Notes: generated by a model not told the origin, from the sequence alone. A stretch of DNA of 50,615 bases from Bacillota bacterium (GCA_007130145.1 SLSY01000102.1:1-50615); one strand, 5' to 3'. Counted from the stretch's first letter, positions 17,713 through 50,615 are shown. Translations and numbers: made by a program.

Positions 17713-17747
17713 ACCCTCCCCATAACGGACTGTAGTTTAAAGTAATC

Positions 17748-18113: not shown

Positions 18114-18135
18114 GTCTGTTACCTCCTACTATGCC

Positions 18136-19692: not shown

Positions 19693-19715
19693 CTCTCGCT
19701 CGAAAATAGGTTCAA

Positions 19716-20348: not shown

Positions 20349-20393
20349 CTACGTGCCCCCTTCCTCGTGACAATTCTATAATGCTGACACGTC

Positions 20394-20930: not shown

Positions 20931-20933
20931 GGC

Positions 20934-24556: not shown

Positions 24557-24576
24557 GATTCACCATCTCCATCTCA

Positions 24577-27723: not shown

Positions 27724-27729
27724 CCTTTC

Positions 27730-28484: not shown

Positions 28485-29154
28485 GACCCCTCATCCCTTC
28501 CGGTCTGCCCCGTGATGACGAACGACACCTAACACAAAATGCCGGGGACAAACCCTCTCCCAACCGGTGGCATGTAGTTCCCATAAGATGGACTCAGTTG
28601 CAGGCAACGGGTTCAAAACCGACAAGACATGGTTCCACCACTCCGGTCGCCTCGTCCCCCGCAAATCATCTTACCCATGCCAGAACCACTCTTTGGCTAT
28701 ACCGATCAGAGCCCCGACCAAGCCACTTCACAGCGCGCTCCCGTTTTTCGCCCTTTTACTGGCATAACTCCTCATCAAAGTGGATCAATCCACTGCCATC
28801 ACTCGCATATCTATGGCTGAACGCGCCCGAGCCACATCACCGGTGCCAGTACAAGCATCAAGGGCCCTCCTCGTGGGCCCCCATTCCAGACTCTACACCA
28901 ATGCCCGTGGCCCATCCTGACAAGCGCACCCGGCTCATACAGGCACGAATACGGTCATTACCGGTGCTTAGCTCAGCGAATACTGCTCCTATATCGTCTG
29001 GCTTGACAGTCAATGAGTCGCCCAATGTGCGCGCACGTCACGAGCACCTCAAAGTAGATTATTTTCTTGTTCATTCTATCACAGGCCCTGTATCATAACA
29101 AGAAGCCCTAACCTGACATGATTCGAGGGATCAGCCGAAATCTTCCAGCGTCAT

Positions 29155-29931: not shown

Positions 29932-30086
29932 CCCTCCTTTGACTACAGTATAGCATGGCGGATTATGCCTTGGACAAGACACTACCAGACAAGGACAAAG
30001 CAGGAGCGAGCCAACGTAGCGGCGAAATGCACGAGGATGCCAACCTACCACAGAGATGAGTAAAGAAAGAATGGAAAGGAGATAGC

Positions 30087-31694
30087 ATGCCGGATCTTGC
30101 TCAGCCGGAGGCCAAGCAAAAGCCCAGCCGTATCATCGCCTTATCTGGCGCCTGCCTGTTGCTCCTGCTGGCAGTGCTTCTTGCCGTCTTGCCAGCGGAC
30201 GCAACCATTCAAGCGGCTAACTATACCTTTTTGGCCTTTCGCGCCCACCCCTATGCCCGAGTAACCGCTCTGGGTTTCTCTCTATTGGGAGCCGGGGGCA
30301 TGCTCTATGCTAGCACGGGCATTCTCAGTCCTGCTGCCCAAGCAGTAGCGTTGTCCGCTGTCTTGTCGGCCATCGCCGTCATCAAGGCTGATAACCTGCT
30401 CTCCTTCTTCATCTTTTGGGAAATGCTGGCTTGGCTCACTCTCTTGTTAGTCGTCATGGATCAAAAACTCACCCGACGCCTGCTGGCCACTACGTTTGCG
30501 TATCTCCTCACCCACCTGGTGGGGGGATTGATGTTGCTGGTAGGCTTCGCTCGCCAGTACGCGCTCACCGGATCGATGGCTCTTAATCCGCTTGAAGCCG
30601 GTGCCATACCCTTCGCCCTCATCGCCGTGGGCATCAAGGCCGCCTTCATCCCCCTCAATTACTGGATTCCTGCGGCTTATCCGGAAGCCACCTACCCAGC
30701 CAGCGTCTTCTTGTCGGGGCTTTCCACCAAGGTCGGTGTACTGGCCATTGTCCGCCTCCTCCATCCTCATCCAGCCATCGCCTACATGGGAGGAGCCATG
30801 GCCCTGTTGGGGGTGGTCTTTGCCTTGCTACAGGTCGATATGCGACGTCTATTGTCCTGGCACATTGTCAGTCAGGTAGGTTACATGGTGGCCTGCATGG
30901 CCTGGGGCACCCCGCAAGCCACCGATGCTGGGTTGCTTCATGTGTTCAACCACATTCTCTACAAGGGCGCTCTCTTCATGGCCGCCGGGTGCGTAATTCG
31001 CCAAACAGCAACGGAGAACCTCAAAAGTCTCAGTCAGCGCTACTCGGTCTCGTTCCTGGTCACGGCATCGGCGCTGGTGGCAGCCCTCTCCATCAGCGGT
31101 GCACCTCCGTTCAATGGCTTCGTATCCAAGACACTGATTAAGTACGCGATCGAGGACCCGCTGCTTTCCTTCATGCTCCTGGTAGCTAGCGTGGGTACGG
31201 CAGCGTCTTTCACCAAATTCATGTACTTGGGGTTTTTATCAGCCCGAAAGAACAAGAACGAACCGGGGCGGCGTCTCCCTCTGGGCATGCAGTTGGGTTT
31301 GGGAGGACTGGCCGGATTGTGCCTTGTGACCGGCCTCTTTCCACAAAGCGTTAAAGGGTTTTTGCCCTATGCCTCTTCCATACCCGTCTACCGCGTGGGC
31401 TCTATCCTGCCAGCAGTCGTTTCGCTGGTGGGTGGGATCGTGGCGTTTACCTTAGCCAGCTGGTTGTTGCCCCGGATTCCCTTTTTGGCGCCACCCCTCA
31501 AGTTTATCAGAGCCGTGGAGTGGTGGTTCACAAACTGGTTCCTCCATGACCGCTTTACCCATGCCCTGCAGAGCATCAACAAGCGAGTCCTGGCCGGATC
31601 CCAGAGGTACGAGCGGCTAGAACAGGTGGGCTTGGCCGTTGTCATGGTCGCTGTGTCCATATTTGCCATTCTGTGGATCATCCTTCTCCACTAG
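30087..31694 (+). CDS. Orphan proton-conducting antiporter-like membrane subunit (NuoL/M/N-MrpD family)
   Basis: 535 aa with FIFWEMLAWLTLLLV, SWHIVSQVGYMVA, and HVFNHILYKGALFM. A GGAAAGGAG SD lies upstream. Confidence 0.85.
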   Translation: MPDLAQPEAKQKPSRIIALSGACLLLLLAVLLAVLPADATIQAANYTFLAFRAHPYARVTALGFSLLGAGGMLYASTGILSPAAQAVALSAVLSAIAVIKADNLLSFFIFWEMLAWLTLLLVVMDQKLTRRLLATTFAYLLTHLVGGLMLLVGFARQYALTGSMALNPLEAGAIPFALIAVGIKAAFIPLNYWIPAAYPEATYPASVFLSGLSTKVGVLAIVRLLHPHPAIAYMGGAMALLGVVFALLQVDMRRLLSWHIVSQVGYMVACMAWGTPQATDAGLLHVFNHILYKGALFMAAGCVIRQTATENLKSLSQRYSVSFLVTASALVAALSISGAPPFNGFVSKTLIKYAIEDPLLSFMLLVASVGTAASFTKFMYLGFLSARKNKNEPGRRLPLGMQLGLGGLAGLCLVTGLFPQSVKGFLPYASSIPVYRVGSILPAVVSLVGGIVAFTLASWLLPRIPFLAPPLKFIRAVEWWFTNWFLHDRFTHALQSINKRVLAGSQRYERLEQVGLAVVMVAVSIFAILWIILLH

Positions 31695-32055
31695 CCCTGC
31701 TCCCTGCTAGCTTTGGTCTCATAAGCGTGCAATGAATGAGACACGGGCTCTTGATACGGGATGACGGATGCCGCGCTAGAGACGATTTTCTTGCCTGGAG
31801 CAGCTGCTGGTACGCCTTTGGGGATCCACCTTACCAGTGGGCAGAACATGTGCTGAAGCCATCAGGCCGGTAAGCGGTGGATGGGGTTTGAACCAGCCGC
31901 AACCTAATGAAGTCTGGGCACATGAAACGTCCTGGGGCACGCTGGAGTAAGGCAGACGCGGATCATTTGGTGTGAGTTCTGACGATCCGGGGCAACGACG
32001 ACAAGGAAGCGGCTAACCATTGCCCCAGGTTCGACTTTTTGATCTAAACGTGCCG

Positions 32056-32086
32056 TTGGACAGCCGCAAGGTAGATGCTGTATAAT
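32056..32086 (+). promoter_or_regulatory. Candidate promoter for rubrerythrin
   Basis: TTGGAC (32056-32061), a 19-nt spacer, then TATAAT (32081-32086) directly preceded by TG. It sits about 75 nt upstream of the rbr ATG. The spacer is longer than optimal. Confidence 0.4.
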
Positions 32087-32160
32087 AATGTCTGAATAGG
32101 GTTTCATGGTAATTCCATCCCCTAGACCTGCCAAAAGCTCTAAGAAAGGATGATACATAC

Positions 32161-32697
32161 ATGAAGGATCTCAAGGGTACTAAGACCGAAAAGAACTTGT
32201 GGGCGGCCTTTGCGGGAGAGTCACAGGCGCGAAACAAGTATACCTTTTTCGCCAGTGTAGCTAAGAAGGAAGGTCTTGAACAGATGGCTGGCGTTTTCCT
32301 GGAAACAGCCGATCATGAGAAGGAACATGCTAAGCGGCTGTTCAAGTTCCTGGGGGCTCTTGGCGATACCAAGGCCAACTTGAAGGCAGCAGCAGACGGC
32401 GAAAACTATGAGTGGACCGAGATGTACAAGGAGTTTGCCGCCACGGCCCGGGAGGAAGGCTTTGGTGAGATTGCTGATGTGCTCACCGAAATCGGTGAGG
32501 TCGAGGAAGAGCACGAGAAGCGCTATCTGAAACTCCTGGACAACCTGGAAAAGGGCATCGTCTTCAAGCGGGATCAGGAAGTTGCCTGGCATTGCCGAAA
32601 TTGTGGCTATGTGCATCACGGCAAAGAAGCACCAGAGGAATGCCCCGCCTGTGCTCATCCTCAGGCCCATTACCAGATCATGTGCGAGAATTACTAA
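32161..32697 (+). CDS. rbr: Rubrerythrin
   Basis: 178 aa with an N-terminal diiron four-helix bundle ([30 protein letters not shown]) and a C-terminal rubredoxin CRNCGY...CPACAHP. Confidence 0.95.
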
Positions 32698-32706
32698 AAG
32701 GTTCAT

Positions 32707-32743
32707 AAAAAGCGGGGCCGCTTTGGCCCCGCTTTTCTCTTTT
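32707..32743. terminator. Bidirectional intrinsic terminator between convergent rbr and sucD
   Basis: AGCGGGGCC (32711-32719) pairs with GGCCCCGCT (32725-32733). It is flanked by AAAA upstream and TTTTCTCTTTT downstream. Confidence 0.8.
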
Positions 32744-32749
32744 ATCGGA

Positions 32750-33625
32750 TTACTTACTCTTTTTCAGCGCTTGCGCCACCAATTGCGGTACTTCCCAGGG
32801 GAATTCCGCCACCAGGCATCCTGCCTGGCTCAGTGCCTTGACTTTTCCTTCAAACGTACCACGGCCGCGTTCAATGATGGCGCCGGCATGTCCCATGCGC
32901 TTGCCCGGAGGCGCCGACTTACCAGCAAGATAGGCAACGGTCGGAAGATCGATCGTCTTGAGGTACTCAGCTGCTTCCTCTTCCGCACTCCCTCCGATTT
33001 CTCCCACCAACACCAGGGCTTCCGTATGATCATCGTTGGCGAACAGCCGAATCACATCGACGAAGGACAGGCCGACGACCCGATCCCCACCCAGGCCCAC
33101 CACCGTGCTTTGACCCAGATCTGCCTGGGTTAGCGAATCGGCCACCTCGTAGCTCAACGTCCCGCTGCGGGCAGCAATGCCCACGGGCCCCGATTTGTAG
33201 ATGGCATTGGGCATAATACCCATTTTGCAACGTCCGGGGCTGATGAGGCCAAAGGTGTTGGGCCCCACCACGGTTGCTCCACATTCTTGGGCATGCTTCA
33301 TCAGTTTGAGTTCATCATGCAGTGGCAGGTGTTCGGATATAACCACCACGGTCTTAATTCCCGCCGCCATGGATTCCATAGCCGCATCCATGGCAAAAGG
33401 AGCGGGCACAAAGAGGACGGAAGCATTCGCTCCATGGCTGGATACGGCCTCTTCGACTGTGTTATAGACCGGAATGCCATGAACTTGCTCTCCGCCCTTG
33501 CCCGGTGAACAGCCGGCCACTACCCGGGAACCGTATGCAAGCATCTGTTCTGTATGAAACCGGCCCTGGTTCCCCGTGATGCCCTGTACCAGAACCTTGG
33601 TCTTTTCGTTAATCAATATAGCCAC
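32750..33625 (-). CDS. sucD: Succinate--CoA ligase subunit alpha
   Basis: 291 aa with VLVQGITGNQGRFHT and the phosphohistidine loop RMGHAGAII. Confidence 0.95.
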   Translation of the reverse strand: MAILINEKTKVLVQGITGNQGRFHTEQMLAYGSRVVAGCSPGKGGEQVHGIPVYNTVEEAVSSHGANASVLFVPAPFAMDAAMESMAAGIKTVVVISEHLPLHDELKLMKHAQECGATVVGPNTFGLISPGRCKMGIMPNAIYKSGPVGIAARSGTLSYEVADSLTQADLGQSTVVGLGGDRVVGLSFVDVIRLFANDDHTEALVLVGEIGGSAEEEAAEYLKTIDLPTVAYLAGKSAPPGKRMGHAGAIIERGRGTFEGKVKALSQAGCLVAEFPWEVPQLVAQALKKSK

Positions 33626-34743
33626 TAGCCCTCACCCCCTGCTCGACTCAGTTCCACGGCCTTCTTCGCTGCCTCATCCAGAGAACTGTACGCCTCAAAT
33701 CCGTTTTCTTGCAAGATGCGCACCCCGGCTTCTTCGTTGGTTCCCACCAAACGAATGACTACGGGCACGGGGATGCCTCGGGTCTTCTTGACCTGCACCA
33801 GGGCGGTTGCTACATCATCGCAACGAGTAATACCGCCAAAGATGTTGATCAAAATAACACTCGGCTCGGTACGCAATAGCACTTCAATGGCCTTGGCCGT
33901 AGGCTCAACCGAAGCCCCTCCTCCCGCATCCAGAAAGTTGGCCGGGCTACCTCCGTAGGCTGAAATAATATCCAGCGTAGCCATGGTAATGCCGGCACCA
34001 TTCGCCATCACGGCAATGTCACCGTCCAGCTGCACAAAGGATAGGCCCAATTCCTTGATGTCTCGTTCGAGGGCACTGCCTTCCTCCACCACCGGCAATT
34101 GAGACTGGCGGAAGAGGGCCTCATCATCCACATTCAGACGGCCATCAGCAGCCAGCAGGCGTCCCTCGCTAACCACCAGCGGGTTAATCTCGACCAGTTC
34201 AGCCTCATTGTCCGCAAATACCCGGTACAGCTTGACTACCAGAGCAGCAAATTGCTTGGCGACGGAACCGCCCAACCCCAATCGTTGGGCCAACTGGCGG
34301 CCCTCATAGGGATACAAGCCCCACACCGGATCCACGTGCTGCTTGATAATGTGCTTCTCGGGGACCTCCTCAATGTTGATCCCGCCATGCATAGAAGCCA
34401 TGACTAAAGGCAGGCGAGCAGCGCTGTCCACGGTTATGCTCACGTAAAGCTCGTGATCAATTTGGAGTTTCTCCTCCACCAATACCCGTTCCACTTTGAG
34501 ACCTCGTATCTCGGCACCGAGCAGACGCTTAGCGGCGGTGCGGGCCTCGTCCGGCGTTGCTGCAAAGGCAATGCCTCCCGCCTTGCCCCTACCTCCGCTC
34601 AGAATTTGGCTCTTGATAGCCACTTCGCCTATACCAGAGGCGATTTCCGCCGCTTCTTCCGGGGTGGTGGCAACCCGTCCCCGAGGCACAGGAATGCCCT
34701 GGCCGGCCATTACTTCTTTGGCCATGTACTCGTATAACTTCAC
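33625..34743 (-). CDS. sucC: Succinate--CoA ligase (ADP-forming) subunit beta
   Basis: 372 aa with MKLYEYMAKEVM, an ATP-grasp region, and GGITRCDDVA. GTG start. It shares 1 nt with sucD. Confidence 0.95.
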   Translation of the reverse strand: MKLYEYMAKEVMAGQGIPVPRGRVATTPEEAAEIASGIGEVAIKSQILSGGRGKAGGIAFAATPDEARTAAKRLLGAEIRGLKVERVLVEEKLQIDHELYVSITVDSAARLPLVMASMHGGINIEEVPEKHIIKQHVDPVWGLYPYEGRQLAQRLGLGGSVAKQFAALVVKLYRVFADNEAELVEINPLVVSEGRLLAADGRLNVDDEALFRQSQLPVVEEGSALERDIKELGLSFVQLDGDIAVMANGAGITMATLDIISAYGGSPANFLDAGGGASVEPTAKAIEVLLRTEPSVILINIFGGITRCDDVATALVQVKKTRGIPVPVVIRLVGTNEEAGVRILQENGFEAYSSLDEAAKKAVELSRAGGEG

Positions 34744-39845: not shown

Positions 39846-41084
39846 TCATAAAGAGCTGGGCACCCGGGTGAAGACAACGGACCTGGGGGCAGGAAGAGTG
39901 CGGAGGGCGAAAATGATCACGCCGACGGTGGCAACCAGGCCTGCCACCCAAAAAGACATCTGGATGCTGAACAAGTCCATCACCACGCCGCCGAGTATGG
40001 AGCCAAAACCCAAGCCCAGACTCATAGCCGTGCTCGTCGTGCCCATGATCGTCCCCATGCCATACAAACGACCCCGTTCCACAGACAACGCGGTGATGGC
40101 TGGTACGTACACCCCGGTGGAAGAGGCCAAGAGCAGGGCACCGGCCATGAGCTGGGCTGGGGTCACGGCCAAAGGCATAAGGTAGATAGCAAGGACCGCA
40201 AAGCTGAACCCCATCAGACCCAAGCGCCGGCGATCGACACGGTCCGCGAGCACACCGCAAAACAGCTGAATGGACGACTCGCACACCGCCTGCAGCGACA
40301 TGATGAGACCAACAATGTAGGGTGGTAATCCCAAATAGACGGCCACCCAGATCGGTAGCATCGCCTCAAATACCGCCCAGCCTGTGGCGAGTGAGAAGCG
40401 TCCGGCTACGATGCCCTGCACTACTCCATCGCGTATGATCGCTGAGAAGGGGGCCAGCGCCATCTTGCCGTAACTGCTGGTGGTCGCACGCTCGGGCACA
40501 AATGCCATAACCAAAAGGAAGGCCAATGCCCCCAAGACACTCATGATCAAAAAGGGTATCCCCATGCCAAAGCGCGCATATAGAAGGGTTCCAGTGATGG
40601 GTCCCAACACAAATCCCCCGATGAAAGACACGTTGAACACGGACATGAGCGTTCCCTCACGACCAGCCGGTGTAACCAGTCCAGCGTAGGCCCAGGCGGC
40701 TGGCTGTACCACAGCCAGCATGATTCCCTGAATAACGCGCCATACCACGAGGGCAGCGGGAGTAGAAGCACTGTACAGGCCCAGTGCTGCCAAAGCGTAG
40801 CCGCCCAAACCCACCAGCATGAGCACCTTAATGCGATAGAGATCTGCCAGGCGTCCGAATACGACCTGAAAGAGGCCGCGGACCAGAGGACTGGCCCCCA
40901 CAACAAGGCCAATCCAGATGCCACTGGCCCCCAGCGCCTGGGCGTGCACGGCCATAAGAGGCATAATGCCACCCATCCCAAAGGACATGAGCAGCATGGC
41001 CATCAACAACACAACGAAGGCTGACATATCCTGTGTCAGCCGCAGCTTGGGCCATCGCACCTTGCTACACCCCCGCCCGCACAA
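39846..41084 (-). CDS. MFS transporter
   Basis: 412 aa with about 12 TM helices and the MFS loop FGRLADLYRIK. The true start may be the internal ATG at 41027. Confidence 0.8.
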   Translation of the reverse strand: MCGRGCSKVRWPKLRLTQDMSAFVVLLMAMLLMSFGMGGIMPLMAVHAQALGASGIWIGLVVGASPLVRGLFQVVFGRLADLYRIKVLMLVGLGGYALAALGLYSASTPAALVVWRVIQGIMLAVVQPAAWAYAGLVTPAGREGTLMSVFNVSFIGGFVLGPITGTLLYARFGMGIPFLIMSVLGALAFLLVMAFVPERATTSSYGKMALAPFSAIIRDGVVQGIVAGRFSLATGWAVFEAMLPIWVAVYLGLPPYIVGLIMSLQAVCESSIQLFCGVLADRVDRRRLGLMGFSFAVLAIYLMPLAVTPAQLMAGALLLASSTGVYVPAITALSVERGRLYGMGTIMGTTSTAMSLGLGFGSILGGVVMDLFSIQMSFWVAGLVATVGVIIFALRTLPAPRSVVFTRVPSSL

Positions 41085-41566
41085 TAGCTAGTGACATTCG
41101 TGACGAAAATGCATTTCCCTGCTACGGGGCAAAGCAATGACCGGGTCCCTCGAGTAGCGGGATACACCCTGTCGTCTCCGCTTCAGTTACCTGGGGGGCA
41201 TCCCTATTCCCGGCCTGCACCGCGCCGCAAACTCCTAAGACCACAAGCGTGACAAAAGCCGTGAGCCGCGCTCTTCTCCCTGTTGGTACCCAAAAACGAG
41301 ATGATAGTAGCTGCGATCGCGGGGTGGTGCAGCGTGAATGGACAAGGGGCAAGCCCCATCCATGAAAACAGGAGGGGCAGCACAGGGGGCTGCATCAGAG
41401 GGTCTTGCCCCCTTCTTGCACCAAGCGAGGGTTTCAAAGCACTCAGGTAGTGGAGCATGGGTGGTTTACGGTCGGATGGGAGCGATTATCAAGAGGTGAA
41501 GTTCCTGCTATGAACAGGCTAGCTTCTCAGACGGCAATGGCCAGCGCCGAGGAGGAAAAGCACATG

Positions 41567-41599
41567 CCCAAGGTTGGAAGGGATCCGACCAACCTTGGG
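41567..41599. other. Perfect 11-bp inverted repeat in a gene-free region
   Basis: CCCAAGGTTGG (41567-41577), an 11-nt loop, then CCAACCTTGGG (41589-41599). On the minus strand it is followed by CATGTGCTTTTCC. Confidence 0.5.
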
Positions 41600-42000
41600 C
41601 CTTGCGGCCAAGACCAGCCAGATGAGAAAGCGCGGCCTCAGGTCGTGAACGAAGATGATAGCAAGCGTTCTCCCACACTACCATGGCTGCGAGCGGATGT
41701 GTGACACAAAAATAGACATGACCAGTGAATTTCACCACTTGACCACCCGGAGCGGGTCCGGCACGTTTCCCAGATAAGCGCAGTCACACTCAATGAAAGC
41801 TCTGGACCATGGCCGCACTCGCCTCGAGGCAGGTGACAAACATGACCCTGTAGCCCTTTGGAGATCATGCCACGAACACTAGGTGACTACGCCTTGCGCG
41901 ATGAGGACTCTCGGTGCCCCATTCCGGTCCATTGGGAACAGAACTCTTCCCCCCTCTGAGGGCTTGCCCTGACACCTATCCCTCGTTGACGTTCATGAGA

Positions 42001-42034
42001 CAAAAGGAAAAGGCCCAGCCAACCGCCGGGCCTC
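42001..42034 (-). terminator. Intrinsic terminator after metF
   Basis: On the minus strand, AGGCCC...GGGCCT (42011-42016 / 42028-42033) is followed by TTTTCCTTTTG. It lies 18 nt downstream of the metF stop. Confidence 0.65.
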
Positions 42035-42051
42035 CGTCTTACCTACTCCCA

Positions 42052-42999
42052 TCAACCTGAGGTGTCGCCGTCCTCCTTTGCCAGTTGGGGGCGCGGGAAA
42101 AGCCCGGCACGATCTACGAGTTCAGGCACTATATCCTCCCAGGCAATGGCCATAATGTGCACGCCCTTGACACCTTCGATTTCGCGCACCTGCTGTATCA
42201 ATTCAACCGCAATGCGAACGCCCTCTTCCTTCTGCTTCTCCTTGGGCACACCCGCCATGCGCTTGACCAATTCATCAGGGACCGCCATGCCTGGCACCTC
42301 CGCATTGCGCCGTAGTGCCGTGGCGGACTTGACAGGTACGATTCCCGCCATGATGTATGTCTTTTCGTGCAGGCCCATGTCTCGCACCATGTCCATATAA
42401 CGCTTGAAACGCTCCACATCGAAGATGGCCTGCGTTTGGATAAAGTCCGCTCCGGCCGCCACCTTCTTAGCTAGTCGCACCACCCGATAGGCAAAGGGAT
42501 CGCCAAAAGGATTGGCGGCGGCTCCAATGAACATGCGCGGTTCATACTTGCACTTATCACCGCTGACGAACACTTTGCCGTCACGCAACTGTTGAACCGC
42601 CCGAATGAGCTGCACAGAATCCAGATCAAACACGTTCTTTGAGGTGGGATGATTGCCAAAAGACTGGTGATCACCTGTCAAGCAGAGCAGATTACGGACT
42701 CCGAGGCTGTAAGCACCGAGAAGATCCGACTGTAAGGCAATGCGATTCCTATCCCGGCATGTCATCTGAATGACGGGCTCGGCCCCGGCCTTCATCACGT
42801 GCACGGATGCAGCAATGGACGACAAGCGGACGATGGCCGTCTGATTATCGGTTAGGTTCAGTGCATCCGCATAATCCTTAAGTGCCGCAGCATGTCGCGA
42901 TATGCTACGACTCGACGTGCTTTTGGGAGGGCCGATTTCGGCTGTGCATGCGAACTGACCGCTCAAGAACACTCTTTCCAAATTGCTTCCCGATTTCAT
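42052..42999 (-). CDS. metF: Methylenetetrahydrofolate reductase, MetF (MetV-associated type)
   Basis: 315 aa with FACTAEIGPPKS, LNLTDNQTAIVRLS, QMTCRDRNRIALQSDLLGA, and NLLCLTGDH. Confidence 0.92.
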   Translation of the reverse strand: MKSGSNLERVFLSGQFACTAEIGPPKSTSSRSISRHAAALKDYADALNLTDNQTAIVRLSSIAASVHVMKAGAEPVIQMTCRDRNRIALQSDLLGAYSLGVRNLLCLTGDHQSFGNHPTSKNVFDLDSVQLIRAVQQLRDGKVFVSGDKCKYEPRMFIGAAANPFGDPFAYRVVRLAKKVAAGADFIQTQAIFDVERFKRYMDMVRDMGLHEKTYIMAGIVPVKSATALRRNAEVPGMAVPDELVKRMAGVPKEKQKEEGVRIAVELIQQVREIEGVKGVHIMAIAWEDIVPELVDRAGLFPRPQLAKEDGDTSG

Positions 43000-43010
43000 C
43001 TAGCCACCCC

Positions 43011-43667
43011 CTATACCGCCTTTACATCCGAACGCTCCACCCGCCGTGGACCGCCATCACGCGCTGTAGACCAATCTTTGGGTGGCAATGGTTCGGTCAG
43101 CAAATCCAACCGGTTCAAGGCCACGAGACGATCATAGATCAGCTGCCACGCACATTCGACATCATCCCTTATTTCACAGTTGCCTTCCTGTGAGCCACCG
43201 CAGGGGCCGTTGAGCAGACTCTTGGAACAACGGATGATGGGGCAAATGCCTCCGGTCAAATGCAGGATACACTCTCCACAGAAGCCACAGCGCTCTTCCC
43301 AGACGCCCGCTTCGCGGGCGCCGCCGCCGAACTTGGTGTTGAGAGCCGGAAGCACCCATGTATGGGAGTAACGTTCTGCCAAAAACTGCACCCCCACTCC
43401 ACAGCCCATGGAGAGTATGCAGTCGACCCCTTCTAACTCTGCATCCAAATCGACAATAAATTCGGGATCACATTGCCTATTGAGCACCGCTGTCAGCACC
43501 TGCCCAAAGCCCCGTAGCTTGAGCAACGCTGCGAGCGTATTCACTTCTTTCTCGCCTCCGGCTTGACACACAGTAACGCACTCAGAGCAGCCGACCACCA
43601 TGATCTTCTGGCAGTCACCGAGCAAGGGAACAATCTCGTCCAATGGTTTGCGCTCCGCTACGATCAT
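43011..43667 (-). CDS. metV: MetV, methylene-THF reductase-associated Cys-rich (Fe-S/zinc-ribbon) subunit
   Basis: I prefer the ATG at 43667 (MIVAERKPLDEIV...) because the track start at 43790 overlaps the upstream gene. Cys motifs: VGCSECVTVCQAGG, CGFCGECIL, and GGICPIIRCSKSLLNGPCGG. Confidence 0.85.
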   Translation of the reverse strand: MIVAERKPLDEIVPLLGDCQKIMVVGCSECVTVCQAGGEKEVNTLAALLKLRGFGQVLTAVLNRQCDPEFIVDLDAELEGVDCILSMGCGVGVQFLAERYSHTWVLPALNTKFGGGAREAGVWEERCGFCGECILHLTGGICPIIRCSKSLLNGPCGGSQEGNCEIRDDVECAWQLIYDRLVALNRLDLLTEPLPPKDWSTARDGGPRRVERSDVKAV

Positions 43668-43689
43668 CAGGTTCACCTTCCTTGTCGCC

Positions 43690-44535
43690 TCAATACTCCT
43701 GGGGCATTTCCTTGAGCTGTGCATAGGTGAAAACAGGTCCATCCAAACACACATACTGAGAACCAATGTTACAGCGACCACACTTACCAATACCGCATTT
43801 CATGCGCATCTCGAGCGTGGTAACGATTTGCTCTGGCGTAAAGCCAAGTTCCTCTAGGCTTTGTATGACAAACTTAATCATGATGGGCGGGCCACAAGTG
43901 ATGGCCACCGCATTGTTGGGAGAGGGACTGACATCCATCAGGATGGCAGGCACGAAACCCACTCGACCATCCCACTGTTCATCGCCACGATCGACCGTCA
44001 CGTAGAGCGCAAGATCCTCGGCCTCGGCCCATTTCTCCAGTTCCCACTTGAACACCAGATCACCGGGACTGCGAGCACCATATATCATGACAATGGAACC
44101 AAACCGCTGCCGGTTCTTGGGATCAATGCAGTAGTTAAACAGCGAACGCAAGGGCGCCAGCCCAATACCGCCGGCGATGAATTGCAGATCCTTACCCTCT
44201 AAGCTATCCACGGGAAATACGTTGCCATAGGGGCCCCGAATCCCGACCTCCTGCCCAACTTCAGCATGGTGCAATGCCGTGGTAAGTTTTCCAGCCTTCT
44301 TGATGGAAAACTCCAGGTATCCTTCCTGGGTAGGCGAAGAGGTGATGGAAATAGGGGCCTCTCCCACCCCCGGCAAAGAGAGCTCGGCAAACTGACCCGG
44401 CTCATACCGAAAGGACTCCCGGTCTTCGGATTCTGTGAAGACCATGCGAAAGGTCTTGACATCATTGACAGCAGTTTCGGTGATGATCTCCTCTATGCGC
44501 GCGCTCTTGGGAACATAAGGATTGCTCACAGACAT
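43690..44535 (-). CDS. FAD/NAD(P)-binding [2Fe-2S] oxidoreductase (FlxA / sulfhydrogenase gamma / AsrB / PyrK-like)
   Basis: 281 aa with an FNR-like fold (PGQFAELSLPGVGEAPISI, FIAGGIGLAPLRS) and a C-terminal cluster motif CGIGKCGRCNIG. Confidence 0.85.
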   Translation of the reverse strand: MSVSNPYVPKSARIEEIITETAVNDVKTFRMVFTESEDRESFRYEPGQFAELSLPGVGEAPISITSSPTQEGYLEFSIKKAGKLTTALHHAEVGQEVGIRGPYGNVFPVDSLEGKDLQFIAGGIGLAPLRSLFNYCIDPKNRQRFGSIVMIYGARSPGDLVFKWELEKWAEAEDLALYVTVDRGDEQWDGRVGFVPAILMDVSPSPNNAVAITCGPPIMIKFVIQSLEELGFTPEQIVTTLEMRMKCGIGKCGRCNIGSQYVCLDGPVFTYAQLKEMPQEY

Positions 44536-45503
44536 CCCCCTAACTCAGCCAGTACTTGACGAATATCCAGGTTCACCGGGCACAACTCGATGCACCGACC
44601 ACAGCCAACACAAGCATGATCTTCCAAGCGCAAGGGGAAGTAGCAAAACTTATGCATCACCCGCTGTCGCATCCGTTCCTTCCCGGACAAACGGGGATTA
44701 TGACCGGATGTGTGCAACGTGAACAGGGGAAACATGCAGGAGTCCCAGGTGCGCAAGCGCGCCTTATCGGTATCTGTCACATCAAAGCAGTGACACGTTG
44801 GGCAGTAATAGGTACACACTGCACAGCCCAGGCACTTCTCGTGCAAGCGCTCCCACACGGGGGCCTCAAAACTCGCTTCGAGTTTCTTGGCCAAACCCTC
44901 CAACTCTACCTCTTCGGCCACAGCCCGGGCTTGATCCTTCTCGGCACGCGCTTGGGCCTGTTGCTCTTTTGTTGCCTCTGGCCACGCTTCTTGCTCCAAA
45001 TACTCTTCCCCGGCTGTGCTAGCCGCTTCGGCCACCCATCCCTCGTCCACCGGCGTAAGCAGCACGTCGAGCCCCACAGTGTCAAAGGGGCCTCCTCCTA
45101 CCGTAGAGCAAAAGCAGGTCATCTGTGGTTGTGGACAAGCCATCCCAATGAAAAGGGCGCCTTGGCGTCTCTCCTGATACGGCCCATCCACCGGTGGCTG
45201 TTCCACAAACACCCGGTCCAACAGATGCACGGCACGAGCATCACACGGGCGCACTCCAAACACCGCCAACGGGCGAGATGTCTTCTCTTGACCGTCGTCA
45301 AACTCCATGAGAACTTCCGTGCGTGGTAGAAAGAGTTCTTTCACCGTTGCGTCAGGATTATGATCCAGCATTGATTCTTGGCCTGCTTGCCACGGTATAT
45401 AACCGGTCTTGCCCCTCAGCTTTCCGGGCCAGTGGAGGTGATAGGACCGGGCCAGGCGAGCGAGCACCTCGTCAAGGGCCGACCTTGCTAGAAATCTGGC
45501 CAT
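44526..45503 (-). CDS. 4Fe-4S dicluster protein (FlxB / sulfhydrogenase beta / AsrA-like)
   Basis: 325 aa with VFGVRPCDARAV, CLGCAVCTYYCPTCHCFD, and CVGCGRCIELCPVN. Confidence 0.8.
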   Translation of the reverse strand: MARFLARSALDEVLARLARSYHLHWPGKLRGKTGYIPWQAGQESMLDHNPDATVKELFLPRTEVLMEFDDGQEKTSRPLAVFGVRPCDARAVHLLDRVFVEQPPVDGPYQERRQGALFIGMACPQPQMTCFCSTVGGGPFDTVGLDVLLTPVDEGWVAEAASTAGEEYLEQEAWPEATKEQQAQARAEKDQARAVAEEVELEGLAKKLEASFEAPVWERLHEKCLGCAVCTYYCPTCHCFDVTDTDKARLRTWDSCMFPLFTLHTSGHNPRLSGKERMRQRVMHKFCYFPLRLEDHACVGCGRCIELCPVNLDIRQVLAELGGCL

Positions 45504-45515
45504 TGCCTTCCCTCC

Positions 45516-46400
45516 TTACTTGATGAAGTCATCAGAATCGTCCTTGGAAAAACTCCCCAGCAAACTGGGGGCATCAGGATCCTGGCCCGACAGGTAGCCA
45601 AAGCGACGGACCGCTTCGGCTTCCATACGCCGGTGCAGCGCCAGGAGATTGATATTCTGCGGACAGGCACGAGCACATGCCCCGCAGTCAGTGCAGCGTC
45701 CGGCCAGATGCAGTGTCCTCACCAGGTGAAAGAGCATGGCTTCGGGTGGTTCATGGACGGGACTCACCCAGTCAGGATGGCTACGATCGGTGAAACACTC
45801 GGGGCAATAGCAGGCCGGACAGGCTTGCCGGCACGCATAGCAGCGAATGCATTTCTCCATTTCGGCGCTAAACCACCGGTAGCGTTCTTCACTATCCTCA
45901 TCTATAGGGGAAGAGGAGACCTGAGCGTCTGCCTCTTCGACCGCAACCTTCTTCTCCCCCAGCCAGCAGTGGAACAGATCGACAGCGGGGAGGCGGCAGT
46001 GTTCACACGCCACCGCCAAAGCCTCTTTCCACTCACCATCATCCAGGGACATTCCCTCTTCCCATCTATCACGGTCAATGACCCCGGGACATTCCACCCC
46101 AATGGCCAACACCTTATCGGGATCTACCTGGCGCTCCCTGATCAGTTCTACCAGAGCTCTGGCGTCACAGGCCTTCACGACAACGCCCACCCGCTCCTTC
46201 TTGAAGCGGGGCAAATAGACGGCCAGATTGGGGTGACAAGTCGGGTCAAACACCAATTCTTGCGCGTCTTCACTGGAGCGGGCAAAGACTACGGTGCTCT
46301 GGGCAGGCAGGCTCCCACGGGCATAGCCAATGAAAACATCGACTTCGCCCTCCCGAAGAAGCCGGGCTGCCTCCTTGCGTAGTTGTTCCTGCACCATCAC
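45516..46400 (-). CDS. 4Fe-4S dicluster protein, paralogue of the downstream gene (FlxC-like)
   Basis: 294 aa with VVVKACDARALV, CIRCYACRQACPACYCPECF, and CTDCGACARACPQN. The start overlaps the mvhD stop (GTGATG). Confidence 0.75.
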   Translation of the reverse strand: MMVQEQLRKEAARLLREGEVDVFIGYARGSLPAQSTVVFARSSEDAQELVFDPTCHPNLAVYLPRFKKERVGVVVKACDARALVELIRERQVDPDKVLAIGVECPGVIDRDRWEEGMSLDDGEWKEALAVACEHCRLPAVDLFHCWLGEKKVAVEEADAQVSSSPIDEDSEERYRWFSAEMEKCIRCYACRQACPACYCPECFTDRSHPDWVSPVHEPPEAMLFHLVRTLHLAGRCTDCGACARACPQNINLLALHRRMEAEAVRRFGYLSGQDPDAPSLLGSFSKDDSDDFIK

Positions 46401-46843
46401 GCTCGCCTCGCTTTCTGGACCAGGCGCTGATTCGGGCCCAAAGCCTGAACCGTTTCGGTCACTTCACGCATGACATCGGAAAATTTCTGGCCTTCGGCCG
46501 CAGACACCCAGGAAAACTGCAGGCGGCCCTTCTCAATGCCCACGAAGTCAAGTAGATTAGCAAGCAGGGCAAACCGGCGTCGGGCCACGTAATTGCCCGC
46601 CAGGTAGTGACAATCCCCCGGATGGCATCCTGACACCAAGACCCCATCTGCCCCCTGGGTTAGGGCTTTGAGAATGTAGAAGGGATTCACCGCACCGGTG
46701 CACGGTACTCGAATGACCCGGACATTGGCCGGGTACTGCAAGCGCGATATCCCTGCCAAATCCGCTCCCGCGTAAGAACACCAGTGGCAAAGAAAGGCCA
46801 CTATCTTCGGTTCCCATTCCGTTTTGACCGCTGGTGCCTTCAT
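46397..46843 (-). CDS. mvhD: MvhD/FlxD-type hydrogenase iron-sulfur (delta) subunit
   Basis: 148 aa with IVAFLCHWCSYAGADLAG, VPCTGAVNP, and SGCHPGDCHY. It overlaps the upstream hdrA-like stop by ATGA. Confidence 0.9.
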   Translation of the reverse strand: MKAPAVKTEWEPKIVAFLCHWCSYAGADLAGISRLQYPANVRVIRVPCTGAVNPFYILKALTQGADGVLVSGCHPGDCHYLAGNYVARRRFALLANLLDFVGIEKGRLQFSWVSAAEGQKFSDVMREVTETVQALGPNQRLVQKARRA

Positions 46844-49800
46844 GTCAGTGCCACCACCTCCGCCAGTATCTGTTCATCTGTGAACCCTTTGAGAGTGATA
46901 GCCCCGCACCGGCAGGTGGCCGCACAGGAACCACACCCTTTGCAGACTGCTGCTTCGACTTGAGCCTCGCCCTTTTCGGCATTGACCTTGATGGCCTGGA
47001 ACTGACAAACTTCCTCACAGGCTCCACAGGCACTGCACAGTCTGGGATCGACTTGGGCCACCGGGCCGCCTGCCTCTATCTCATCCTTGCTGATGATGGT
47101 TACAGCCCTGCTCACGGCGGCCTGGGCCTGGGCGATGCTCTCGGCAATCGTCTTAGGACCATGGGCCAACCCCGCCACAAACACCCCGTCGGTGGAGAAA
47201 TCCACCGGACGAAGTTTGGCGTGAGCCTCCAGGAAGAATCCTTCCTGATTCAGCGGGATCTTGAGCAGTTGCGCTATGTGACGGCCATCCCCAGGAGCCT
47301 TGACCCCCGTGGCCAAAACGACAGCATCGGCGTCAATTACCACGTTGGCACCCAGAACCCCATCGTATACGACGACCTCTAGCTTCTCAGGGCCACTCTC
47401 CAGCTGCGGTTTATGATCTTCGTCATAACGCAAGAAGGTTACCCCCGCCTCCCGGGCGCGCCGATAGGCGTTCTCCTTGAGACCATACGTGCGAATATCC
47501 CGGTAGAGGATGAATACCTCGCTGGTGGGATCGGCTTCCTTGATAGACAGGGCGTTCTTGACCATCTGCTGGCAGCATACCCGGCTGCAGTAGAGCTGAC
47601 CTTCCTCGCGCGAGCCAGCGCATCCGATCATGACCACCGTCTGGCCTTTCGCTTCCCATCCCTGTAACTGACGTTCAAACTGACTGCTGGTGAAAACACG
47701 TCCATCCTGGCCCAAGAGATACTCTGTGGTGCTGGCTTCCTCACCGCCAATAGCGACGACGATTGCACCGTGTTCCAGATCTTTTGTGGTATCGTCCTGG
47801 ACAACGCGAGTGGTGAAATTGCCCACATATCCATCGATGCTCTCAATGTTCGCCCGAAGATACACATCAATGAGAGGATGGTCCAAGACCTGTTTCTCCA
47901 AGTCAGAAAGCAGCGATCGGAGATCCTCTCCCTCCAAGGTGCTCCCCAGCTGGCGCAACCGGCCACCCAGCGAATCACCCTTCTCTACCAAGTGACAGGG
48001 GAATCCTTGCTGGGCAAAACCCAACGCGGCGGTGAGGCCAGCAACTCCGCCTCCGATGACCAGAGCCTTCTGTGTAACCGGCACCTGGCTGCGATACAAC
48101 GGTTCCAAGAGGCATGCCTTGGCCACAGCCATGCGCACCAAGTCCTTGGCTTTATCGGTGGCGGGTCCGGGCTCGTGCATGTGCACCCAGGAGCACTGAT
48201 CACGGATATTGGCCATCTCAAACAGGTAAGGGTTCAGTCCCCCTTCCCGTATGGTTTGCTGAAACAGGGCCTCGTGTGTTCTTGGGGAACAGGAGGCTAC
48301 CACAATACGATTGAGATCGTGCTCTTCGATGAGTTCTTTCATGCGATCCTGTGTATCCTGCGAACAAGTGTAAAGGTTATCCTCCACATGCACCACATAG
48401 GGCAACGTGCGAGCATACTCAGCAACGTCGGGCACTCGCACCACCCCGCCAATATTGATGCCGCACTGACAGACGAAGACGCCGACCCGTGGGCGCTGGT
48501 GGAGCACTGTGCGCTCAGGCGGGTATTCCTTGTGGCGAATCATGGACCAACGTGCCGGACTGAGAACCTGAGCTGCGGCAGCAGCAGCAGCGCTCGATTC
48601 TACCACCGTTTCCGGGATATCCTTGGGCGACTTCGCCGCTCCGGCAGCGAACACTCCCTGCCAGGATGTGGATACCGGGTTAGATGATGCCGAGACAAGA
48701 TATCCGCTCTCGTCCAAGAGCATCCCCGTCTTATTGGCCAACGCGACCAGATCCTTTTGGGGCGCAAGTCCAACTGACAATACGACCAGATCGAATTCTT
48801 CATGATCGACCCCATCGTGTTCATCAGCATAACTGAGCACCAGAGAACCCTCCTGAGAGCCCTCCTTCACGCCAAAGACCTTGCCGCGCTTGAACACCAC
48901 ACCTTGCTCATTTTTGGCTCTGAGGTAATACTGCTCAAAGTCCTTGCCATAGGCGCGTATATCCATATAGAAGATGGTGATATCGAGCGGCTCGGTGGCA
49001 TGTTCCTTGGCGATCACCGCTTCCTTAATGGCATACATACAGCATACCGAGGAGCAGTAGCCCGCCCCGTTCTTCACATCACGAGACCCCACACACTGAA
49101 TGAAGGCAATGCGGCGCGGAGTCTGGCCATCAGAAGGCCGGGCCACATGGCCTCCAAAGGGACCCGATGCCGAAAGAATGCGCTCGAATTCCACACTGGT
49201 CACCACGTTGGGAAAGCGGTCATACCCATAGGCATTGAGTTGCTCCACTGGTGTCGTGTCAAAACCCGGCGTGAGAATGACCGATCCCACCTCAACCTCG
49301 CGTTCCACTTCGAACATATCATGGCGGATGGCCTCAGCCTGGCATGCTCTCTCACACTCTAAGCACTCAGCACAGATCCCGCAATCCAGGCAGCGCATCG
49401 CTTCAGCCTGAGCCGCCTTCTCATCCAAGCCCTGTTCGACCTCAAAGAAGCCTTGAACCCTCTCCTTGGCATCCAGTTCCGGCATGGGCGGGCGAGCTTG
49501 GCGCTCCCGATCTCGGGGTACTTCACCCACCACCAGAGGTAGATCTTCGTCCTCCCCTGGTTTGACCAACTCTTCACCGTTAAGATAACGCTCAATGGAG
49601 CGAGCCACGCGGCGCCCAGCCGCCACGGCCCAGATCACGGTGTCAGGCCCGGTCACGGCATCACCGCCAGAAAATATGCCCGCGCGGGGCGTTGCCAGCG
49701 TCACTTCATCCGACACCAGGCGTCCCCACCGGTCCACCAGATCACTGTGGGTTTCGCCCAAAAAGCCCGTGTCGGGGTTTTGACCGATGGCCACAATCAG

Positions 49801-50615
49801 GTTATCGGCCTGCAAACGATACTGATCACCCTCGATGGGAACAGGCCGCCGGCGTCCCGAAGCATCGGGACTCCCCAGCTCCATGCGCTGGCAGACAACC
49901 GCCTGAAGGCGGCCGTCCTCCACGAACAGTTCGCTCGGTGCCGACAAATACTCGATCTTAACACCTTCAGCCAATGCGGCTTCGATTTCGTGCTCAGCCG
50001 CGGGCATCTCTTTTCGGGTGCGCCGGTAGAGCACGGTAACCTCGCGGCCTCCCAATCTGAGCGCGCTCCGCGCCGCATCGATGGCCACGTTGCCGCCCCC
50101 TACCACGACCACTTTCTCGCCCAGCTGGGGCGGTTGGTACAGGTTCGCGTCGCGTAAGAAATCAACCCCGCTCAGAATCCCTTGGGCATCTTCACCAGCC
50201 AGGGACAATTTCATATCCTGGTGAGCCCCCAAAGCCAGGAACACACTGCGATAACCCTCCGTCTCCAGGTCTTCAAAGGTAAAGTCCCGGCCCAATGCAG
50301 TATTGGTACGGATCTCCACGCCCAGATTCTTGATGGCCTCGATCTCGGTGTTCAGCACGTCAGGAGGCAACCGATAATCGGGGATTCCCACTGCCAGCAT
50401 GCCGCCGGCCACCGGCAATGCTTCAAAGATCGTTACAGGGAAACCGGCCAGAGCCAGGAAATGAGCAGCGGTGAGACCCGCCGGTCCCGAACCGATAATG
50501 GCCACTTTCTCCTCCCGCGTCTGTTCCGGTTTGCTCAACGAACCGCTTTCAGGGTTGGCGTTCTCATAATCGGCAACAAAGCGCTTGAGAGCGCATATGG
50601 CCAATGGATCATCGA
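46840..50615 (-). CDS. hdrA: Giant HdrA-family flavoprotein: GltD/NfnB-like NAD(P)H module, then a partial HdrA module, then a complete HdrA module (5' end off-window)
   Basis: More than 1254 aa. The frame is open to the window edge (..DDPLAICALKRFVADYE), so the track start (a TTG at 50604) is not the true start. See the findings for the domain map. Confidence 0.9.
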   Translation of the reverse strand, partial: DDPLAICALKRFVADYENANPESGSLSKPEQTREEKVAIIGSGPAGLTAAHFLALAGFPVTIFEALPVAGGMLAVGIPDYRLPPDVLNTEIEAIKNLGVEIRTNTALGRDFTFEDLETEGYRSVFLALGAHQDMKLSLAGEDAQGILSGVDFLRDANLYQPPQLGEKVVVVGGGNVAIDAARSALRLGGREVTVLYRRTRKEMPAAEHEIEAALAEGVKIEYLSAPSELFVEDGRLQAVVCQRMELGSPDASGRRRPVPIEGDQYRLQADNLIVAIGQNPDTGFLGETHSDLVDRWGRLVSDEVTLATPRAGIFSGGDAVTGPDTVIWAVAAGRRVARSIERYLNGEELVKPGEDEDLPLVVGEVPRDRERQARPPMPELDAKERVQGFFEVEQGLDEKAAQAEAMRCLDCGICAECLECERACQAEAIRHDMFEVEREVEVGSVILTPGFDTTPVEQLNAYGYDRFPNVVTSVEFERILSASGPFGGHVARPSDGQTPRRIAFIQCVGSRDVKNGAGYCSSVCCMYAIKEAVIAKEHATEPLDITIFYMDIRAYGKDFEQYYLRAKNEQGVVFKRGKVFGVKEGSQEGSLVLSYADEHDGVDHEEFDLVVLSVGLAPQKDLVALANKTGMLLDESGYLVSASSNPVSTSWQGVFAAGAAKSPKDIPETVVESSAAAAAAAQVLSPARWSMIRHKEYPPERTVLHQRPRVGVFVCQCGINIGGVVRVPDVAEYARTLPYVVHVEDNLYTCSQDTQDRMKELIEEHDLNRIVVASCSPRTHEALFQQTIREGGLNPYLFEMANIRDQCSWVHMHEPGPATDKAKDLVRMAVAKACLLEPLYRSQVPVTQKALVIGGGVAGLTAALGFAQQGFPCHLVEKGDSLGGRLRQLGSTLEGEDLRSLLSDLEKQVLDHPLIDVYLRANIESIDGYVGNFTTRVVQDDTTKDLEHGAIVVAIGGEEASTTEYLLGQDGRVFTSSQFERQLQGWEAKGQTVVMIGCAGSREEGQLYCSRVCCQQMVKNALSIKEADPTSEVFILYRDIRTYGLKENAYRRAREAGVTFLRYDEDHKPQLESGPEKLEVVVYDGVLGANVVIDADAVVLATGVKAPGDGRHIAQLLKIPLNQEGFFLEAHAKLRPVDFSTDGVFVAGLAHGPKTIAESIAQAQAAVSRAVTIISKDEIEAGGPVAQVDPRLCSACGACEEVCQFQAIKVNAEKGEAQVEAAVCKGCGSCAATCRCGAITLKGFTDEQILAEVVALT

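Follow-up and report, generated by a model that had tools for sequence, protein, structure and literature searches.

The window analysed here, a 50,615-nt stretch of DNA from a Bacillota bacterium (GCA_007130145.1 SLSY01000102.1:1-50615), ends in seven minus-strand genes encoding a MetVF-type methylene-tetrahydrofolate (THF) reductase and redox proteins resembling HdrA, MvhD and the Flx proteins. These seven genes close a long Wood-Ljungdahl (acs) gene cluster at its 3' end, and the last 11 genes of that cluster probably encode an HdrB-less, HdrA-based, NAD(P)H-linked methylene-THF reductase system which would operate by flavin-based electron bifurcation or confurcation. The 11-gene module is best seen as a derivative of the type IV methylene-THF reductases, in which MetVF would replace HdrB as the acceptor and the Flx and NfnB-like modules would add pyridine-nucleotide sites. 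The features within the window, in the direction of transcription, are as follows.

46840 to beyond 50615, minus strand: hdrL-like gene, 5' end cut by the window edge
46397 to 46843, minus strand: mvhD2 (FlxD-like), 148 aa, predicted [2Fe-2S] electron-transfer subunit
45516 to 46400, minus strand: flxC-like Fe-S protein gene, 293-294 aa
44526 to 45503, minus strand: flxB-like Fe-S protein gene, 325 aa
43690 to 44535, minus strand: flxA-like flavoprotein gene, 281 aa, FAD/NAD(P)H-binding, [2Fe-2S]
43011 to 43667, minus strand: metV, 218 aa, ATG start
42052 to 42999, minus strand: metF, 315 aa, methylene-THF reductase (catalytic flavoprotein)
42009 to 42035, minus strand: intrinsic-terminator-like hairpin, 11 pairs (7 G-C), then TCCTTTTGTC

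An earlier interpretation made from the window alone (the sequence-only reading) had described seven packed minus-strand open reading frames (ORFs). They were found where it had placed them, with junctions that agreed exactly when recomputed from the sequence: hdrL and mvhD2 share an ATGA overlap, mvhD2 and flxC a GTGATG overlap, and flxB and flxA overlap by 10 nt, with gaps of 12 nt between flxC and flxB, 22 nt between flxA and metV, and 11 nt between metV and metF. The intergenic gaps hold Shine-Dalgarno-like GGAGG/GGTG motifs. Its claim that a terminator appears only after metF also stands: the hairpin at 42035-42009, which begins 17 nt past the metF stop and has a T-rich tail, is the strongest terminator-like match on both strands of 41000-50615, and the remaining matches are short stems of 5-8 pairs at about chance level (14 observed versus 8.7 +/- 2.8 by chance).

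At the window edge the hdrL-like ORF has no in-frame stop before 50615 and is therefore truncated, leaving the gene array open-ended. For the upstream extension we used the ENA contig L001, which is 99.75% identical to the window over the 14.2 kb that they share and indicates that 658 nt (about 219 codons) of the hdrL-like ORF are missing. A selenocysteine codon or a stop at the 5' end of this giant ORF was considered and rejected, as the ORF simply continues past the edge. In L001, the strand upstream of hdrL carries cooC-acsD-acsE-hdrA'a-hdrA'b-mvhD1-hdrC' in the same direction. The genes hdrA'a and hdrA'b encode a split HdrA-like pair (346 and 419 aa), mvhD1 (L001 4675-5088) is a second mvhD (137 aa), and hdrC' (L001 5095-5574) encodes a 159-aa di-cluster protein; all four lie outside the window. 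From cooC to metF there are thus at least 14 co-directional genes, with six overlapping junctions and a largest gap of 46 nt. In the closest relative with a readable upstream region, acsB-acsC-RACo-cooC-acsD-acsE precede the same genes. With spacers this short all along cooC-metF, and with acs genes in front, the transcription unit would reach far beyond seven genes, and the seven-gene operon of the sequence-only reading was not borne out.

The distribution of these genes was examined by a scan with a MetV alignment, using one genome per GTDB species, which yielded 80 loci classified by tblastn; the scan covered those relatives that carry the CSECVTVC and [QH]AGGEKEV motifs. The gene directly ahead of metV is mvhD in 62 of the 80 loci and flxA in 9, the latter all from uncultured Bacillota metagenome-assembled genomes (MAGs). 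Eight of these nine have the full order hdrA'a-hdrA'b-mvhD1-hdrC'-hdrL-mvhD2-flxC-flxB-flxA-metV-metF. The order on which the sequence-only reading was built thus recurs in eight further species of uncultured Bacillota, and its conservation in these species-level genomes and one partial locus, at protein identities of 44-82%, is more than chance would give.

The 11 genes can be divided into three blocks: A, hdrA'a-hdrA'b-mvhD1; B, hdrC'-hdrL-mvhD2-flxC-flxB-flxA; and M, metV-metF. The order A-B-M is found in the window and the eight Bacillota species, A-M-B in the Anaerolineae MAG L034, and M-A-B in the Limnochordia MAG L089. That the three blocks are kept together in three orders argues for all 11 genes, and not only the seven noted earlier, forming one functional unit, and this permutation is the best available evidence for such a unit. 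The second split HdrA and the second MvhD are also members of the conserved unit. Sets lacking flx occur as well, namely hdrC'-hdrL-mvhD-metV in Dehalococcoidia, Thermoplasmata and Thermoguttaceae, and hdrA'ab-mvhD-metV-metF in Thermodesulfobacteriota and Methanomassiliicoccales, indicating that HdrA-type modules pair with MetVF widely. In the Syntrophorhabdus MAG L088, hdrC and a true hdrB lie ahead of hdrL and there are no flx genes; HdrB loss and FlxCBA presence therefore go together in the loci examined. At the L088 locus metV-metF is present twice, and there are genes for a further metF paralogue, a histidine kinase with a PAS domain and an unusually long MvhD (251 aa).

Extending the contig upstream bore out half of the suggestion that hdrB and hdrC might lie beyond 50615: an hdrC-like gene is present, but hdrB was not found. 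HdrC' matches the TIGR03290 HdrC model (E 2e-30, 105.6 bits against a cut-off of 160) over profile positions 2-87 of 144 only, and its two CxxCxxCxxxCP motifs are conserved in the 11 loci compared. No HdrB (CCG domain, PF02754) was detected among the called genes of L001, L002, L003, L005 and L090, and none was found at the locus in the eight related species with the full gene order. With the fused HdrCB of a Desulfotomaculum MAG as tblastn query, the HdrC part matched the 159-aa hdrC', and the HdrB part gave no match in the window or the related loci. One apparent counter-example was set aside. Positions 1-1100 of NCBI DMHJ01000056 (UBA8153; contig end L004/L009) encode a C-terminal piece of HdrB and the N-terminal domain of an HdrA, passing into hdrL at about residue 29, but the JGI contig L003, from the same population, has hdrA'b-mvhD1-hdrC'-hdrL there; this NCBI end is probably chimeric, joined at an HdrA motif that is conserved. 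In the same NCBI record hdrL is broken at residues 1190/1192.

Conserved linkage and the missing HdrB both bear on an alternative in which two separate enzymes are merely co-transcribed. HdrC'-HdrL-MvhD2-FlxCBA, with or without HdrA'ab-MvhD1, would then be an NAD(P)H/ferredoxin transhydrogenase, bifurcating or Nfn-like, that balances the Wood-Ljungdahl redox pools, and MetVF would be a type II enzyme drawing on free reduced ferredoxin. Such an arrangement has precedents, in that HdrL-MvhD occurs without metVF beside dsr genes in Desulfobacterium autotrophicum (PMC2702500) and beside hdrABC in Syntrophobacter fumaroxidans (PMC5947623), reduced ferredoxin serves type II MetVF enzymes as electron donor when these are purified and assayed in vitro (PMC8760232), and the NfnB-like domain and FNR/PyrK-like subunit of the module (see below) amount to both halves of Nfn. 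We nevertheless hold it to be unlikely, given that metVF stays attached to the Hdr/Flx blocks across the three block orders and across phyla, that metV directly follows mvhD in the 62 loci mentioned above, that without HdrB, the normal high-potential acceptor site, the Hdr module has no acceptor unless MetVF serves as one, and that a ferredoxin-consuming methylene-THF reductase has been argued to be energetically untenable in acetogens (PMC8760232).

Profile searches confirmed the gene identities proposed from sequence (MTHFR, MetV/DUF5981, FlpD/MvhD, Fer4_22, FNR with DHODB_Fe-S_bind, and HdrA-type). MetF covers the full Pfam MTHFR profile (PF02219, 1e-44) and matches MTHFR structures in the PDB at 7e-17 and weaker. 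MetV, the Cys-rich Fe-S/Zn subunit of MetVF-type enzymes, matches PF12225/DUF5981 (MTHFR C-terminal, 2.7e-36) and is 65-76% identical to the MetV of the relatives; a PDB search with MetV returned no homologue and thus no solved structure of any MetV-containing enzyme. MvhD2 covers the full FlpD profile (5.6e-55), and its CxWC motif is present in 8 of the 8 correctly extracted loci, three others having been mis-extracted. MvhD1 lacks this CxxC motif in the eight loci correctly extracted for it (two were mis-extracted); the exception is L034, whose MvhD1 has CNWC and is identical to the L034 MvhD2, and so is possibly an extraction artefact.

The sequence-only reading had taken two of the Flx-like products for AsrA/HydB-like Fe-S proteins, which holds for one of them. 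The FlxB-like protein matches Fer4_22 (1e-29) and the beta subunit of Pyrococcus furiosus sulfhydrogenase I (PDB 9nez_B, 8e-39), as well as the NCBIfam models ShyB (4e-51), HydB (3.5e-40) and AsrA (1.8e-37), all under their cut-offs. The FlxC-like protein, by contrast, is related to FdhB: its PDB matches are the FdhB subunits of Hdr-Fdh supercomplexes (9t1s_M, 7bkb_E and 8rvu_E, E about 1e-28), its Pfam matches are Fer4 and a weak FrhB_FdhB_C, and its two CxxCxxCxxxCP motifs are conserved in the 11 loci. As it aligns only to residues 32-129 and 279-382 of FdhB (the beta subunit of F420-type formate dehydrogenase), the central part of FdhB is missing. The FlxA-like protein has FAD_binding_6, NAD_binding_1 and DHODB_Fe-S_bind (PyrK-type [2Fe-2S] motif) domains and a CGxGKCGRC motif conserved in the 11 loci; its closest solved relative is the sulfhydrogenase I gamma subunit (9nez_C, 9e-72), and its best NCBIfam model is PRK08345, followed by HydG and, more weakly, AsrB (5e-66), all under the curated cut-offs. 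Together, FlxA and FlxB thus make up an NAD(P)H dehydrogenase of the sulfhydrogenase beta/gamma kind, to which FlxC adds an Fe-S adaptor resembling FdhB.

These scores also allow the module to be weighed as a classical Flx-Hdr NADH:disulfide (DsrC-type) oxidoreductase, or as an AsrAB-type sulfite reductase, functionally unrelated to MetVF. The matches of FlxA to AsrB and of FlxB to AsrA, and a gene order like that of the Flox-Hdr clusters, are what such an enzyme would show; yet the AsrA/B scores lie under the cut-offs and are weaker than those of ShyB and HydG, the array has no AsrC or siroheme subunit, no HdrB/CCG protein, the disulfide-reducing site, was found in the window, in L001 or at the loci of the eight full-order relatives, and the cluster lies among acs genes, with metVF at its end. 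AsrABC sulfite reductase was accordingly rejected on the missing AsrC gene and the sub-threshold AsrA/AsrB scores. As neither HdrB nor AsrC is present, a disulfide- or sulfite-reducing function is very unlikely, and we give this alternative hardly any credence.

The sequence-only reading was right to call the product of the first gene an HdrA-type giant flavoprotein, but its gene was truncated and the real protein is of the HdrL type, with an NfnB/GltD-like module. Full-length HdrL (1477 aa, L001 5571-10004) matches HdrA of Methanothermococcus thermolithotrophicus (5odc_A, E 8e-190) in four stretches, and a further region matches NfnB/GltD-type chains.

HdrL 20-159: HdrA 152-291 (5odc_A), FAD domain plus the initial half of the inserted ferredoxin domain, with TFPTNDCAMCIL
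HdrL about 161-643: NfnB/GltD-type chains (5jca_L 1e-96, 4ylf_B 3e-91, 9n5u_A, 8oh5_C)
HdrL 632-841: HdrA 291-500 (5odc_A)
HdrL 926-1082: HdrA 2-158 (5odc_A), N-terminal cluster domain, CQCGINI
HdrL 1333-1472: HdrA 504-645 (5odc_A), C-terminal 2x[4Fe-4S] domain

Module 2 of HdrL lacks the Cys motif present in module 1, and with this motif in one module and the N-terminal domain in the other, HdrL is a tandem HdrA with complementary losses. The HdrA associated with Flox in Desulfotomaculum aligns with HdrL 29-158 and 627-1476 only; since this alignment skips the NfnB-like part, the latter is directly seen to be an insertion, and its insertion point falls in the inserted ferredoxin domain of HdrA (HdrA 291/292). 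By its alignments, HdrL is thus a pseudo-dimeric tandem HdrA into which about 470-480 aa of NfnB/GltD-like NAD(P)H/FAD/2x[4Fe-4S] sequence are inserted. Its Pfam matches are Pyr_redox_2 and Fer4, it scores 566 bits against NCBIfam PRK12771 (cut-off 516 bits), and its motifs TFPTNDCxMC, CxCGINI, GGGNxAxD and YRR are conserved in the 11 loci. HdrL-type proteins (about 1480 aa) are very common in metagenomes, with E <=1e-50 for 7999 of 8000 scored candidates. Among the best 120 matches none stands under the name of a cultured organism, the named ones being MAGs, and the proteins are entered only under unspecific labels ('NAD(P)-binding protein' or 'FAD-dependent oxidoreductase', for instance).

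With an NfnB/GltD-like NAD(P)H module inside HdrL, the system would have at least two different pyridine-nucleotide sites. This raises the possibility that the complex is the same but its low-potential acceptor is NADP+, reduced at the NfnB-like FAD of HdrL, with NADH entering at FlxA (2 NADH + NADP+ + CH2-THF -> 2 NAD+ + NADPH + CH3-THF). Methylene-THF reduction, being exergonic, would then drive the reduction of NADP+, and the enzyme would be a methylene-THF reductase coupled to transhydrogenation. The NfnB-like module does sit in the inserted ferredoxin domain of HdrA, which we take to lie on the low-potential exit path, and the GGGNVAxD...YRR motif conserved in the 11 loci, typical of NADPH-binding GltD/NfnB proteins, gives a lead rather than a test. 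HdrL nevertheless retains a complete C-terminal 2x[4Fe-4S] ferredoxin domain, which is presumably the usual exit to ferredoxin in HdrA, and specificity for NADH or NADPH is not reliably readable from these sequences. NADP has been suggested earlier as a possible second acceptor of Hdr-MetVF enzymes (PMC5736913), but electrons could just as well enter at the NfnB-like module, the role assumed for it in the HdrL of sulfate reducers (PMC2702500). An NADP+-reducing complex of this kind seems to us improbable.

The component families are all known (MetVF, HdrA/HdrL, MvhD, and Flx or sulfhydrogenase beta/gamma), and the nearest described systems include the Moorella-type methylene-THF reductases and the Flx-Hdr enzymes. 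The MetFV-HdrABC-MvhD methylene-THF reductase of Moorella thermoacetica was reportedly described by Mock et al. in 2014. In Moorella the genes hdrCBA-mvhD-metVF lie directly after acsE in the acs cluster. The legend to Figure 2 of PMC5736913 backs this location in part. The enzyme has been reviewed as a type IV methylene-THF reductase (PMC5861303, PMC8760232), and HdrA of Moorella has likewise been described as a tandem two-module protein whose modules lack, in complementary fashion, the Cys197 motif and the N-terminal domain (PMC9012536). The module studied here is like the Moorella system also in that metV-metF are preceded by mvhD and hdrA-type genes downstream of acsE (judged by gene content and description), and in the presumed flavin-based bifurcation with methylene-THF as the high-potential acceptor. 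It differs in that i) it lacks HdrB, and its HdrC-like protein is short (159 aa), ii) it has two HdrA units (HdrA'a/b and HdrL) and two MvhD genes, and iii) its HdrL has an NfnB-like NAD(P)H module and flxC-flxB-flxA lie between mvhD and metV.

The FlxABCD-HdrABC NADH dehydrogenase-heterodisulfide reductase of Desulfovibrio vulgaris was reportedly described by Ramos et al. in 2015; Flox-Hdr clusters of this kind are known from Desulfotomaculum and Dehalobacteriia, and our comparison was made with the one in a Desulfotomaculum MAG. The order hdrA-mvhD(flxD)-flxC-flxB-flxA is that of the canonical Desulfotomaculum Flox-Hdr cluster, in which a fused hdrCB occupies the slot taken here by metVF, and the earlier description of the array as a hybrid of MetFV-Hdr-MvhD and Flx-Hdr is thereby supported. 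Identities between homologues are 38-63% (FlxA 51%, FlxB 46%, FlxC 38%), and the FlxA-FlxB pair resembles the sulfhydrogenase gamma and beta subunits in both. In contrast to Flox-Hdr, MetVF here takes the position of the HdrCB/HdrD catalytic subunit, the presumed acceptor is methylene-THF and not DsrC or another disulfide, and HdrA carries the NfnB-like insertion. The Desulfotomaculum MAG contig JACDOL010000007 (L006/L007) has hdrA-mvhD-flxC-flxB-flxA twice, 7.8 kb apart and with identical proteins, and a fused hdrCB between the two copies, which reflects a recent tandem duplication or an assembly artefact.

HdrL was named in D. autotrophicum for an HdrA/GltD-like fusion, and HdrL-MvhD is found there beside dsr genes (PMC2702500) and in S. 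fumaroxidans beside hdrABC (PMC5947623); HdrA9-11 of ANME-1 are HdrA-NfnB fusions with the insertion within the inserted ferredoxin domain (PMC9012536). The HdrL studied here shares with the first two the combination of a large HdrA and a glutamate-synthase-small-subunit/NfnB-like domain, followed by mvhD, and with the ANME-1 proteins the placement of the insertion. Those proteins, however, adjoin dsr, hdrABC or fdh and were proposed to act in sulfite/heterodisulfide metabolism, whereas the partners here are MetVF and FlxCBA, HdrB is lacking and no selenocysteine is evident. With NfnAB, the NADH-dependent ferredoxin:NADP+ oxidoreductase, the system shares the match of HdrL residues about 161-643 to NfnB-type chains and the FNR/PyrK fold class of FlxA and NfnA (4ylf_A, 5.6e-13), but FlxA is far closer to sulfhydrogenase gamma (9e-72), and the NfnB-like part is internal to a 1477-aa protein rather than one of two separate NfnA/NfnB subunits. 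The NAD(P)H-FAD-[2Fe-2S]-[4Fe-4S] wire of the P. furiosus sulfhydrogenase I beta/gamma subunits (9nez) seems to be preserved; no hydrogenase large or small subunits are encoded, and the wire would feed MvhD/HdrA-type proteins instead.

MetVF has no NAD(P)H site of its own and needs an added module for the use of NADH, for which four solutions, types I-IV, have been distinguished (PMC8760232); type IV (Hdr) enzymes are thought to bifurcate, with a third partner that has remained unidentified (PMC8760232, PMC5861303, PMC13040438). In the HdrB-less bifurcating system that we favour, the electron path would be as follows: 1) NAD(P)H would be oxidised at FlxA. 2) Electrons would pass via the FlxB and FlxC clusters to the [2Fe-2S] of MvhD2 and then to the HdrA-type FAD of HdrL, a route proposed by analogy with the FdhB and MvhD route of the methanogen Fdh/Mvh-Hdr complexes. 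3) This FAD would split the electron pair. 4) The high-potential electron would reach methylene-THF (E0' about -200 mV) through the HdrC-like clusters, MetV and MetF, so that MetVF stands in for HdrB and a disulfide. 5) The low-potential electron would leave via the ferredoxin domains of HdrL to ferredoxin (Fd), or possibly via the NfnB-like module to NADP+. The net reaction would be 2 NAD(P)H + Fd(ox) + CH2-THF <-> 2 NAD(P)+ + Fd(red) + CH3-THF, running forward for acetogenesis/CO2 fixation and backward (confurcation) if methyl groups are oxidised, a choice which sequence cannot decide.

This proposal is based on the gene identities, the tight coupling of translation between cooC and metF and a terminator that comes only behind the latter, the position of the module directly after acsE, as in the relative with a readable upstream region, the presence of MetVF in the HdrCB slot of the Desulfotomaculum order together with the absence of HdrB, the block permutation, the flx-free pairing of Hdr with MetVF elsewhere, and the cofactor motifs conserved in the 11 loci. 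Several points weigh against it. It is drawn from sequence and synteny, and all carriers found are uncultured MAGs. Shared transcription with the acs genes speaks for a shared pathway, not for a physical complex; HdrB could be encoded elsewhere in the carrier genomes; and MetVF alone takes electrons from reduced ferredoxin in vitro (PMC8760232). MvhD1, lacking the CxxC motif, may not carry the normal cluster and may bind one differently or not at all. Finally, as the possible NAD(P)H sites number two or three, both the stoichiometry and the choice of ferredoxin or NADP+ as low-potential acceptor are guesses.

A bolder and doubtful extension is that all 11 products form one supercomplex with two bifurcating flavins in series, the HdrA-type FAD and the NfnB-type FAD, on the same polypeptide. 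Four redox pools would meet in it, namely NADH (FlxA), NADPH (NfnB-like module), ferredoxin, and methylene-THF (reached by way of HdrC'-MetV-MetF), and thiol/disulfide chemistry would play no part. If true, such a supercomplex would be an Nfn-plus-MTHFR redox hub, and the long-sought coupling partners of the Hdr-type methylene-THF reductases would have been identified.

Whether and how the methylene-THF reductase step conserves energy has been debated since the 1970s. The third redox partner of the Hdr-type IV enzyme was still considered incompletely understood in a 2026 paper (PMC13040438), and we found no paper in the searchable literature that describes flx genes together with metVF, or an HdrL-Flx-MetVF module that lacks HdrB. 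With HdrB dropped and FlxCBA and an NfnB-like domain added, the possible partners would be narrowed to NAD(P)H and either ferredoxin or NADP+. If the proposed bifurcating system is real, an acceptor other than a thiol can be coupled to bifurcation by HdrA, and the missing NAD(P)H/ferredoxin-coupled methylene-THF reductase of energy models for acetogens and acetate oxidisers would be supplied. Being compact and conserved, the gene set could be expressed and assayed.

Beyond the metF terminator, about 1 kb (41085-42051) without a credible ORF separates the cluster from a gene for an MFS transporter (39846-41084, minus strand). A riboswitch or other RNA was considered for this region and rejected, since Rfam matched nothing there; the region might be a long leader or have a regulatory role. 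A Pfam scan of the rest of the window gave the following genes.

15052 to 15984: MeaB
16137 to 17255: OAD_beta
18136 to 19692: methylmalonyl-CoA-type carboxyltransferase
20934 to 26031 and 30087 to 31694: four Proton_antipo_M (Mrp/complex-I-like) genes
32750 to 34743: succinyl-CoA synthetase

The window thus also codes for a methylmalonyl-CoA decarboxylase beside the Wood-Ljungdahl cluster, and the genes at 15052-34743 hint at sodium-coupled succinate/propionate metabolism.

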